Positions 15,001 to 18,000 of a stretch of DNA of 64,000 bases are shown here, one piece after another. The DNA is taken from contig CAWDJT010000043.1 in assembly GCA_963802715.1 (NCBI GenBank), positions 1-64,000 on the forward strand, written 5' to 3'. The position numbers are program-made. Within the stretch, counting starts at the first letter, position 1; every line of letters begins with the position of its first letter. Source of the DNA: an uncultured delta proteobacterium. Lineage in GTDB: Bacteria > Desulfobacterota > Syntrophobacteria > Syntrophobacterales > Syntrophobacteraceae.

Positions 15001-18000
15001 GTCTTGCGGGTCATGGGTCCCTTGAATTCCGGTATTTCCAAAATGAGAGGGCCACCGGGTTCAAGCAGGATGCTTCTCCACCAGTTCCCGATTTTCCTCA
15101 GCCAGGGCTTCGGTGATGAGCATCAGCCCGATTTCTTCCCGGCGAAGCTGGTCAACTAGAGTGGTCACCTCGGCTGCGGAGCGCGCGAGCCGGCCTTCCA
15201 TTCCCGCCAGGCGAAAGGCGAGAACCGTGTCCGAGTCTCCGATGACTGCGATTTTCATAACTTTGCCAGGATCATCAGGGCGACAATCAGTCCGTAGATG
15301 GCAATACCTTCGGCCAAACCGATGAAGATCAGAGCGCGGCCGGCGAGCTCCGGTTTTTCGCCGATGGCCCCCATGGCGGCGGCGCCGACGACCGCCACGG
15401 CGATGCCCGCGCCCAGAGTGGAAGCTCCGACGGCAATGGCCGCCGAAAGATACCCCATACCCGCGTCGGCATGACCCTTGGAGACCGCCTCTTCCGCCAG
15501 GGCCAACGCTGGAGAGTACGATCCACAAGCACATCATCAGGAGCAGTTTCAGGCGTTCCATGAGGCCTCCTTTGTCAGGCAGTGAACAGTGAACAGTGAG
15601 CAGTGAACAGTGAGCGGTGAACAGTGACAGAAGAGAGCAGTGAGCAGTGAACAGTGAACGGCTCCTTTGTTCTTCAAGTGCTTGATCAAGCCCACAGTCA
15701 TCTTCCTCACGTCCTCAATCTTCTTGTCAATAGCTGCAGAACCCTCGGTTAAGCACAGCTCTTTCGACAGGATATACTGCGTGTCAAGCTCGGCAATGGA
15801 GCCAAGAGCAATGTAAAGAAAATGAATAAAATCCTTGTCGGTGTTTCTGGCCGCGCCTTCAGCTATGTTACTTACAATCGAAACGGCTGAGCGCCTCATC
15901 TGTGAGACTAGTCCATACAGTTCAGATGCTGGAAAGCCGACGGTGAGTTGGTAGACTTCCTTGGCCAACTCCATGGCCTGTTTCCATACCTCCAAATCCT
16001 TATGCGTCGGCATCCTGCTCTCCCCCATCACTGTTCACTCATCACTGCTCACTGTTCCTCATCACTGCTCACTGTTCACTGTTCACTCATCACGGTCCAA
16101 TTTCTTTGTCGAAGGATCTGAAGCGCTCACCGCCGCCTCGGAAGAACTTGCCGAAGAATTCATAATACTCCAGACGCACGGTTTGAATCGAGACCACCAG
16201 TCCTTCCAGGACAATGATGATGACGTTTCCCACCGCAACCACCAACCAATAAGACACTCCTGCCGCCCTTCTCCTGGGCCACCACCCTGGCAATGGAGAA
16301 AACCGCGGTAAACAGGGCTGCATGGGAAAGAGCAAAAGCTGCCACACGGAGAAATGAAACGGTGTTGGCCACAAAGCGAAGGAGATCATCAAAGACTTCC
16401 ACAATCGATTCGATGAGCCCGGTCAGGAAACCGGATTGCTTGACGATCCGCTTCGGGTGTTCCCTTTTGATAAGGAGCCGGTACAGGGGACGATGGAGGA
16501 TCATGACGGTGATGAGGATGGCGGCGGCCCAGCCCAGGAGGCTGAATTCACCCGGGCGCCACCTGGCCGGTGAGCAGATACTTCATGCCGAGACCGGCAC
16601 CCATCCAGTAGAGCAGGGCCCCGGCAAGTCCGCCGGCACCGAGCAGGTTCTCGTACTCCTTGAGTCGCAAGGCGTTGATCAGGTTGAGCACGAGCCCGAG
16701 GCTGACCAGGGCCACCCCCAGGGACAAGGTTACCTTGACGAAATACGGGTATGTTGTCCATGGGCCTGAACCAGAGTGCCGGGAAGATGTTCTCGAGGCC
16801 GAAGACGCTTCCATAGAGAACGCCGAAAAGCGCCGAACTGAGGCCGCATTCCATGAGGATGATACCATAGTCCATGTACTTGTAGAACCGGCGGAAGACG
16901 AGATAGCCAAGAAGAAAGAGAACACCGCCCTGACCGACGTCGCCAAACATCATGCCGAATAGGAGCAAAAAGCTCAGGGCAAAAAAGACCGTGGGCTCGA
17001 CTTCCCTGTAGCGAGGCGTGCCATACAGGCTGGTGAGCTTCTCGAACGGGCTGATGAGCATGGGGTTGTTGAAAAGGATCGGGATTTTCACGATGCCTTC
17101 CCGCACTTCGCCGCAATTCTTCCGGGTCCACCCTTTCGAAGACGACCTGCGCCGTCCGTCACCGGTTCAGCTCGTATCGTCCAAGAGCTCGCAAAGAGCC
17201 GCTCCGGCATCCAGCCGGAGATGAGATAGCTCTTGTCGATCTTGCCGAAAAGACGGCGCGCTGCGAGCATTTGCCGGGCCGCGATGGCTTTCTCCCGAAG
17301 CGTCAAGAGCTCGACGCTGAATTGACGCTGGAAAACTTGTTGTTGTCCGGCCAGGCGCTTGAACCTTTTCCTGCAGTCGACCGATTTCGGATTCGAGGTC
17401 TGCGACAGCGGCATCTACGGTCCCCGAAGTCCCCTCCGGGATTTCCATGGGCTCAAAGAGCGCTCCCTGTAAGAGCCCGTTTGAAGGTCTGCCAGTCTTT
17501 TTTCAAACCGAACACCACGATCACGGCCCGGTCCTGCAAGGTTCCCAACTCAATCAAGGCATGATGCCGTTCGGATAGGCTTTCTTCAAGCTTTTCGAGT
17601 CCCAGGGCCGGAACCAGACCGATCACCCAACGGACGTATTGGCGGTCGCGTAGAGATGGCGTGAAGTCAAACTCACCCGGTAGGAGTTTGAACCGGTCGA
17701 GCAACGCTTTTTCTCCCGCAGGCTGGTTCAACCGTTCCAACTCACCCAGATCCGTCTCTACCACCGCGCGTATCTCCCGAAAACGCTCGCGCACTTTGAA
17801 GATGTCTTTTTCCGGAATGACTTCTTCGTCCAACGAAACGCCATCGGGACGCACCTGCAGGAGGTCCAGCATTTTCTCAAGTTCATCGAAAAACTGTTCA
17901 TAGTCCCTGAGCAAGCTCCCATCGGTTTCAGCCACGTACCCCAGGCGGCCCAGATGGGTTTCATCAATCCGGATCAGGTGCAGCAGCTTGAGCCTGGCAA

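Follow-up and report, generated by a model that had tools for sequence, protein, structure and literature searches.

Inverted heptamer arrays around a four-helix-bundle gene at an ATPase operon junction: a likely selfish mobile cassette related to rRNA intervening sequences

The closest described counterpart of the element reported here is the intervening sequence (IVS) in helix 45 of the Coxiella burnetii 23S rRNA, in which heptamers precede the S23p start and RNase III cuts at the first repeat, as described in the accessible text of that report (PMC4990558). The likeness extends to a length of approximately 430–500 nt, an S23p/PF05635 gene in the loop, complementary ends forming the stem, tandem heptamers before the start codon (the IVS being variable in copy number among strains), patchy distribution, and horizontal acquisition; in the same text, the authors judged S23p to be unexpressed and expendable in Coxiella (PMC4990558).

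Three further systems share individual features with this element, according to the parts of the source reports that were accessible. The Avd protein of diversity-generating retroelements (DGRs) is a reverse transcriptase (RT) cofactor that binds an RNA stem-loop, and crevices of its protomers accommodate flipped RNA bases (10.1101/2023.10.23.563531). REPIN/RAYT systems have a gene within inverted short repeats, gene-less hairpin derivatives, and a repeat type tied to the gene lineage (PMC3116915). Heptamer arrays, namely TAACTGA in Beggiatoaceae (PMC4679880) and GGGAATC in Xanthomonas and Nostoc (PMC4692102), resemble the present arrays in having stops in all frames, lying at gene ends or just before start codons, and often forming convergent inverted pairs; a term search of the accessible text of these two reports for "S23", "four helix", and "helix bundle" gave no match, and no cargo gene is described there.

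The present analysis concerns a stretch of 64,000 nucleotides (the window), here contig C43, from the genome of an uncultured delta proteobacterium (G000). A first-pass annotation had placed a gene between inverted arrays at 15577-16094, which was borne out with arms of CAGTGAA/CAGTGAG units and a PF05635 cargo. All features lie on the minus strand. The whole cassette (15577..16092) runs from the atpI stop codon to just ahead of the atpK ribosome-binding site. Its 5' arm (16025..16092) consists of about ten purine-rich heptamer units, the first TGA of which is the atpI stop codon, and a likely ribosome-binding site of the cargo gene, judged from its sequence, lies at the inner end of this arm (16021..16027). 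The four-helix-bundle gene (15549..16013) is a frame of 154 aa whose 119-residue domain (approximately 15657-16013) matches PF05635 (E 1e-35) and TIGR02436. The 3' arm (15579..15661) holds about 11 pyrimidine-rich units and is the reverse complement of the 5' arm, with one arm pair of 26 nt being 100% complementary. The host flanks are the 3' end of A/V-type ATPase subunit I (16090..16504), frameshifted in the assembly, and subunit K (15255..15561), frameshifted near its start. The cargo frame lacks the stop codon present in its relatives, reads across the 3' arm, and stops 13 nt inside atpK.

The earlier proposal that such cassettes form a stem in mRNA had come with the caveat that the fold had no shuffle control. 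When this control was run, the cassette transcript gave an arm-to-arm fold with a z of -6.48, and 0 of 100 shuffles were equally stable. The arm-to-arm fold is predicted, whereas action of the stem in mRNA rather than in DNA gained no support, since G-U wobble substitutions showed no strand skew (244 vs 207 substitutions, 39 vs 36 loci, p 0.82) and one cassette lies antisense to its operon. No sequencing run contained half of the window; the two RNA runs contained 10% and 5% of its words, their contigs being from other organisms, and an Rfam scan of 14 cassette loci gave zero matches.

The atpI-atpK spacer of G000 (15562-16089) measures 528 bp versus 22-97 bp in five relatives (G001 50, G023 34, G022 22, G013 97, and G011 96 bp), in agreement with the earlier description of a long junction here and short ones in relatives, for which a range of 38-58 bp had been obtained with other end points. 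In G001 (C8, L060), which belongs to the same genus, the "empty" spacer contains three degenerate units that resemble heptamers but are of another type; a different cassette may have left them as a scar.

The A/V-type ATPase operon of the window (10500-19500) contains several frameshifts, with subunits I, K, B, and others in pieces; these may be assembly indels or decay, and a frameshift in the GxxExxY gene at the C34 locus of G000 may share the cause. Such frameshifts in the atp operon, together with very long perfect arrays in some drafts, raise the possibility that the arrangement arose by chance or as an assembly artefact. As an account of the design this reading is refuted, and we assign it almost no probability, since the same design occurs in closed genomes and on plasmids of cultured strains, control ORFs hardly ever show it (see below), and atpK, the 3' arm, and the end of the cargo gene are also contiguous on an independent contig from soil.

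To evaluate how general the arms are, 236 distinct four-helix-bundle genes of near-full length were collected from relatives, from a sample of the phylum, from named genomes, and from plasmids of cyanobacteria; 226 of these genes had full flanks. By the criterion of at least three fuzzy units on both arms, arms were found at 133/226 loci versus 1/579 same-size ORFs of G000, and 43/226 loci had at most one unit on an arm. An exact-5-mer score of at least 3 was reached by 57/128 full-flank four-helix-bundle loci and 12/38 GxxExxY loci versus 1/1084 same-size G000 ORFs, that one being the family member on C50. The array enrichment at family loci reported earlier was thus reproduced with independent scores. 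The median was 4 units per arm, and 120/137 units were 7-mers. Among 93 representatives below 62% identity, the units followed a loose pattern, Y-N-A-G-K-N-R, at 4 SD over shuffles; 74/93 were purine-rich and 57/93 contained a stop codon, versus 45.1 in shuffles (P 0.001).

The units follow the protein clade, as had been claimed. Unit similarity rose with protein identity (Mantel rho 0.29, p 0.001; 0.24 below 55% identity), and units agreed at 6/7 bases in 1% of the pairs below 35% protein identity and in 71% of those above 80%. In a quick tree with SH-aLRT support only, the C43 protein fell in a clade of 10 rows (SH-aLRT 95) that includes the two G005 trx-dsbD copies named in the first-pass annotation, and the C9 protein grouped, as also stated there, with the G004 cheR/response-regulator copy, joined by a G002 copy (SH-aLRT 99). 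The C43 clade keeps AGTGA-core units at unrelated host sites, next to atpI, thioredoxin, thiolase, the end of a presumably glmS-like gene (named from its C-terminal motif), and others, and the host neighbours have no common function. A residue-to-base recognition code was sought as well; the global signal (z up to 5.9, at R40, F62, and R56) was lost when units were permuted within clades, and one different residue-base column passed the within-clade permutation at 1/3 cut heights only. Since no residue-base covariation was left after clade control, co-inheritance alone explains why the unit follows the clade.

Differences at single host junctions were also observed. Related genomes carry different units at the same junction (L013 vs L019; L054 and L038 vs L037), and L019 retains a trace of an L013-type array ahead of the new array, a sequence arrangement that suggests cassette replacement. 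In L078-L080 vs L081 and L084, and in L075 vs L077, one flank gene is constant and the other switches at the array; hence, the arms may act as rearrangement points.

GxxExxY (PF13366) genes had earlier been grouped with PF05635 as cargo of one cassette. This grouping goes too far, since the 62 distinct four-helix-bundle units and the 11 distinct GxxExxY units have zero in common; GxxExxY units are 8-10 nt long, and 0/11 contain a stop codon (1.8 expected, not significant alone). GxxExxY cassettes follow a parallel design built on other repeats. GxxExxY has a PD-(D/E)xK motif; residues D72, E82, and K84 are kept in at least 90% of 28 GxxExxY sequences, and a sequence search found no relative with a solved structure. 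The cargo is likely a nuclease, which could drive homing directly. Its action in trans for the four-helix cassettes was considered and set aside, as the two genes showed no association across 41 genomes (14 with both, 8 with the four-helix gene only, 7 with GxxExxY only, 12 with neither; p 0.12).

Concerning the four-helix-bundle protein itself, no nuclease motif or site is known for PF05635, and no enzyme is encoded in the four-helix-bundle cassette. The predicted model of the C43 protein (pLDDT 95.9) matched the solved structures of Xcc0516 (2GSC, TM 0.91) and Avd (4DWL, TM 0.75), and BT_0352 (2RLD) was also matched. As 2GSC and Avd are pentamers, the modelled C43 protein is likely a pentamer as well. 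Avd shares the four-helix-bundle fold, and its pentamer has base-binding crevices between protomers according to the accessible parts of two reports (10.1101/2023.10.23.563531, PMC10053308). The two differ in that identity is 13% and the cassette has no RT, template repeat, or variable repeat. An RT search gave no match on C43; the RT matches of G000 lie on C54, C5, and C27, and the neighbours of the cassette are ATPase genes. The cassette was accordingly rejected as a DGR, having an Avd-like bundle without an adjacent RT with template and variable repeats.

The dN/dS ratio was 0.06-0.17 in the 6 computable pairs of the C43 clade, with synonymous sites near saturation, and these sequence comparisons place the protein under strong purifying selection. 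Broken cassette copies are nevertheless common, decayed ones occurring at the same sites (G014, Nostoc C052, and L229), and PF05635 is present in 53/121 genomes of the phylum sample. Purifying selection combined with decay, patchiness, unrelated neighbours, and clade-linked arms is what would be expected of the protein of a selfish element and not of a host gene. The gene and its arms behave as one unit that has been gained at unrelated sites, an interpretation supported by the observations. As an explanation, we favour a promoter-less selfish cassette at operon gene junctions, with an Avd-like ring protein predicted to bind the arms of its own cassette and thereby to promote its spread, a proposal for which we hold belief and doubt in equal measure.

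Nostocales plasmids provided six sites (A–F) with both filled and empty states, whose flanks are up to 98% identical. One cassette family occurs at three different plasmid sites, and its copies are homologous over the whole length between the outermost units of the two arms, these units included. At site D (filled in Trichormus, empty in N. linckia), a 428-bp insertion between 98% identical flanks shows a clean 5-bp duplication over the stop codon with zero host loss, and a comparable 5-bp repeat at site B comes with the loss of a single base. Nostoc PCC 7120 is also empty at site D, which T. variabilis ATCC 29413 has filled. At sites A, C, and F, the cassette begins at the stop and replaces 3-40 bp of spacer; at site C, it provides a new start in frame across the 3' arm, and at site F, where the cargo gene is antisense to nrdAB, the cassette still begins at the host stop. 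At site E, the last 12 host codons are removed and the arm provides the stop. In addition, a gene-less relic occurs at site A, as does an independent hairpin built from another unit. The ends were ragged and a duplication was seen at 2/6 of these sites; across diverged loci, target duplication gave no general signal (7/45 vs a null of 7.9). With no fixed terminal inverted repeats and no constant target duplication, the cassette was rejected as an IS/MITE (DDE transposon). The earlier description of a mobile cassette therefore stands as regards arm-to-arm homology, filled and empty alleles, and unrelated sites, whereas the way of moving is something we only infer. Its caveat that loss may explain empty sites holds, too: at site D, a relic lies in a more distant allele while the closer alleles are empty, so precise loss or homing must also have occurred and some empty sites may be losses.

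Free-standing homing endonuclease genes insert between genes, decay and re-invade, and pass from allele to allele with co-conversion. The four-helix cassette is alike in inter-gene insertion and decay and may be so in allele transfer; it differs in that its protein has no known nuclease site, and repeat arms are not known from homing elements. Between the two filled alleles of site A, the cassette had 3/496 differences versus 38/793 in the right flank and approximately 18% in the left flank, and at third positions 0/121 versus 18/139 in the next gene. At site B, third-position differences were 3/122 in the cassette versus 28/147 upstream, and the near-identical tract extends 200-300 bp into the right flank. 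The contrast was weak at site C (12% in the cassette vs 23%), and neither site D nor the C50 site common to G001 showed it. Low cassette divergence at sites A and B fits allele-to-allele transfer as in homing, judged from alignments of plasmids that are mosaic anyway.

This mosaicism in the flanks of the Nostoc plasmids, together with the heterogeneous junctions, would also suit a passive passenger that moves by ordinary recombination or in IS/MITE carriers, the protein being kept for host benefit (e.g., as an RNA-binding accessory in defence or surface-polysaccharide islands) and the arms making the insertion harmless. Carriage of this kind does occur for gene-less hairpins: all 8 gene-less CACGAA hairpins of G000 are carried by near-identical copies of a 220-bp MITE that has 17-bp terminal inverted repeats (C12:30523-30742, C12:40925-41144, C22:45568-45787, C22:85838-86057, C30:164281-164500, C34:22554-22773, C49:289-505, and C50:138137-138356), 6/8 of which show an 11-bp duplication of a short palindromic target. 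The loop of the MITE hairpin looks like the opening codons of a GxxExxY gene, as in a gutted GxxExxY-type hairpin, and the single MITE ends that were examined had no autonomous or partner transposase next to them. The C50 cassette likewise looks vertically inherited with G001, sequence identity being 86% in the gene and 83% in the flanks. Gene-bearing cassettes, in contrast, lack IS ends and are homologous only as far as the arms, host neighbours share no function, frequent decay argues against host benefit, and clade-specific arms would be needless for a passenger. We therefore consider passive carriage rather unlikely, at perhaps one chance in several. Gene-less hairpins are found elsewhere, doublets being numerous in G021, G005, and G039. 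The window's CAGTGAA unit has zero gene-less offspring in G000, and G021 (L068, L200), which is 98%-complete and has no PF05635 match, contains many gene-less arrays and hairpins of this unit.

Returning to the selfish cassette, we next consider its position relative to host genes. A long upstream ORF was present in 79 representatives; in 45 of them, the stop codon of the host gene lay -12 to +10 nt from the first unit, in 16 the frame read further into the array, and in 18 the stop was further away, these being partly misassigned, including that of the window locus, because atpI is frameshifted. Of the arrays beginning after the host stop, 25/43 begin within 12 nt, versus 8-18% of the bases in G000 co-directional spacers. 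Selection for expression inside operons could give this stop-codon bias as well as targeting. The statement that cassettes lie between operon genes holds for the window locus and needs qualification elsewhere, as arrays often overlap host gene ends.

At the other end, an in-frame ATG lies at most 15 nt from the end of the 3' arm in 34/76 loci, and the 3' arm falls within a host open frame in 27/76, both being counts without a control. These counts, the ending of the window cargo frame on the atpK start, and the proposal, in the accessible text of one report, that heptamer arrays before start codons are translational regulators (PMC4679880) could speak for a domesticated regulatory switch, in which the stem and protein tune expression of the host gene that follows, either by masking its start or by determining a site of processing. 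Such a switch appears improbable to us, given the patchiness among close relatives, the unrelated host operons, the different cassettes at one site, and the antisense insertion.

Within G000, profile searches matched 6 PF05635 and 4 PF13366 genes. An unbiased genome scan yielded 12 pairs of inverted arrays with members at most 1.6 kb apart, versus 0-4 at offset distances; 3 of these loci carry PF05635, 3 GxxExxY, and 6 are gene-less hairpins. The claim that 8 of 10 arrays flank PF05635 genes was not reproduced when loci were counted, the proportion being 3/12. With 20 shuffles each, the fold z was -6.7 for C43, -6.6 for C9, -7.3 for C50, -4.0 for C55, -4.3 for C34, and -5.4 for C11, and the C22 (z -0.2) and C2 (z -0.3) loci showed no fold. 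Long-range pairs numbered 50-77 in C43, C9, C50, C55, and C34, versus only 5 in C11; this locus, offered earlier as an example, is indeed stable, but its stability comes from local hairpins without a single enclosing stem.

Six relatives have no cassette at the C55 site and keep the native end of the upstream gene. G004 and G010 lack one at the C9 site; their host proteins there have longer tails, in place of which G000 has an array-coded peptide. G014 holds a decayed cassette copy at the C9-orthologous site, within which a REP-like hairpin element was noted (C10:13860-13990, L202). An empty-site search for C34 across 5 genomes found none, and a search of a phage collection gave no match. At C50 and C9, the 3' arm falls within the next host reading frame, so cleavage there would sever the host message.

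As to how the selfish cassette might work, new sites would be gained by a rare, imprecise, transposase-free event leaving a short duplication or a small deletion, and within an occupied site the cassette would spread between alleles through homologous recombination in the flanks, in a homing-like manner. It would be tolerated in that the 5' arm terminates host translation and the 3' end either spares the following start codon or provides one. The arms may pair into a long stem with the cargo looped out or cut by RNase III, which G000 encodes, as in the Coxiella 23S intervening sequence, and the probably pentameric protein may wrap approximately 4-5 units of one arm, either as RNA or as single-stranded DNA.

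A more elaborate alternative is a non-autonomous retroelement, in which RNase III would free a stem-loop RNA, the Avd-like pentamer would bind it and recruit a borrowed RT, and the cDNA would enter stop-codon junctions. Avd, an RT cofactor that binds an RNA stem-loop and has the same fold, makes this conceivable, and the short duplications and ragged ends at sites B and D and the junction preference agree with it. Tandem 229-bp copies in G017 (L040), which comprise the 3' half of the gene plus the 3' arm and are variably truncated at the 5' side with fixed 3' ends, could be read in the same way, although they include other DNA and could be amplification or assembly artefacts. RTs, however, show no association with the gene in 41 genomes (13 with both, 9 with the gene only, 9 with RT only, 10 with neither; p 0.54), the gene-only genomes including the closed G038 with 8 matches; the antisense cassette likewise begins at the host stop; and a G-U skew is absent. 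We hold this route to be improbable, if a little less so than the regulatory switch.

The same G017 region (C18:328600-342000) has more than 45 perfect heptamer units ahead of one four-helix-bundle gene, and this genome has 26 family matches.

Comparison with the described systems places the selfish cassette as follows. Relative to the Coxiella IVS, as far as the accessible text describes it, the window cassette lies between protein genes and its family occupies many unrelated sites; its arms are longer and on both sides, its protein is under purifying selection, and RNase III excision is here only proposed (PMC4990558). It has the PF05635/TIGR02436 protein and, by predicted fold, a long stem around the ORF; its flanks are atpI and atpK and not rRNA. 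Being built like an IVS and lying outside rRNA, it is a variant and not a member of that class, likely a selfish mobile cassette related to rRNA intervening sequences. It differs from REPIN/RAYT in having no HUH transposase and in units that are 7-9 nt long, tandem, and non-palindromic; that assignment was rejected because the cargo is PF05635 or TIGR04256 and not an HUH Y1 transposase.

In a literature search whose coverage mostly lacked subscription papers and supplements, no description of such cassettes outside rRNA was found. This study adds a junction statistic with controls, six sites compared in the filled and the empty state, a divergence contrast resembling that of homing, and a set of negative tests. 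A wider reading is that these are minimal mobile elements without their own transposase or RT, whose pentamer recognises heptamer arms and drives stop-junction insertion and homing, and that they are the source of ORF-bearing rRNA intervening sequences and of many heptamer arrays, with GxxExxY as a parallel; we advance it tentatively, as an idea more probably wrong than right. The very common family PF05635 has no assigned function, and the reports consulted do not explain why bacteria carry an excess of 7-base repeats. If the gene and repeats are one mobile unit, the role of PF05635, the repeat excess, and the spread of rRNA intervening sequences become testable, and a 430-bp element with filled and empty alleles exists in cultured cyanobacteria.

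Elsewhere in the window, at 23300-23600 and 24680-25250, short runs in a shadow ORF near arsenic-resistance genes translate like the 3'-arm peptide of the cassette.
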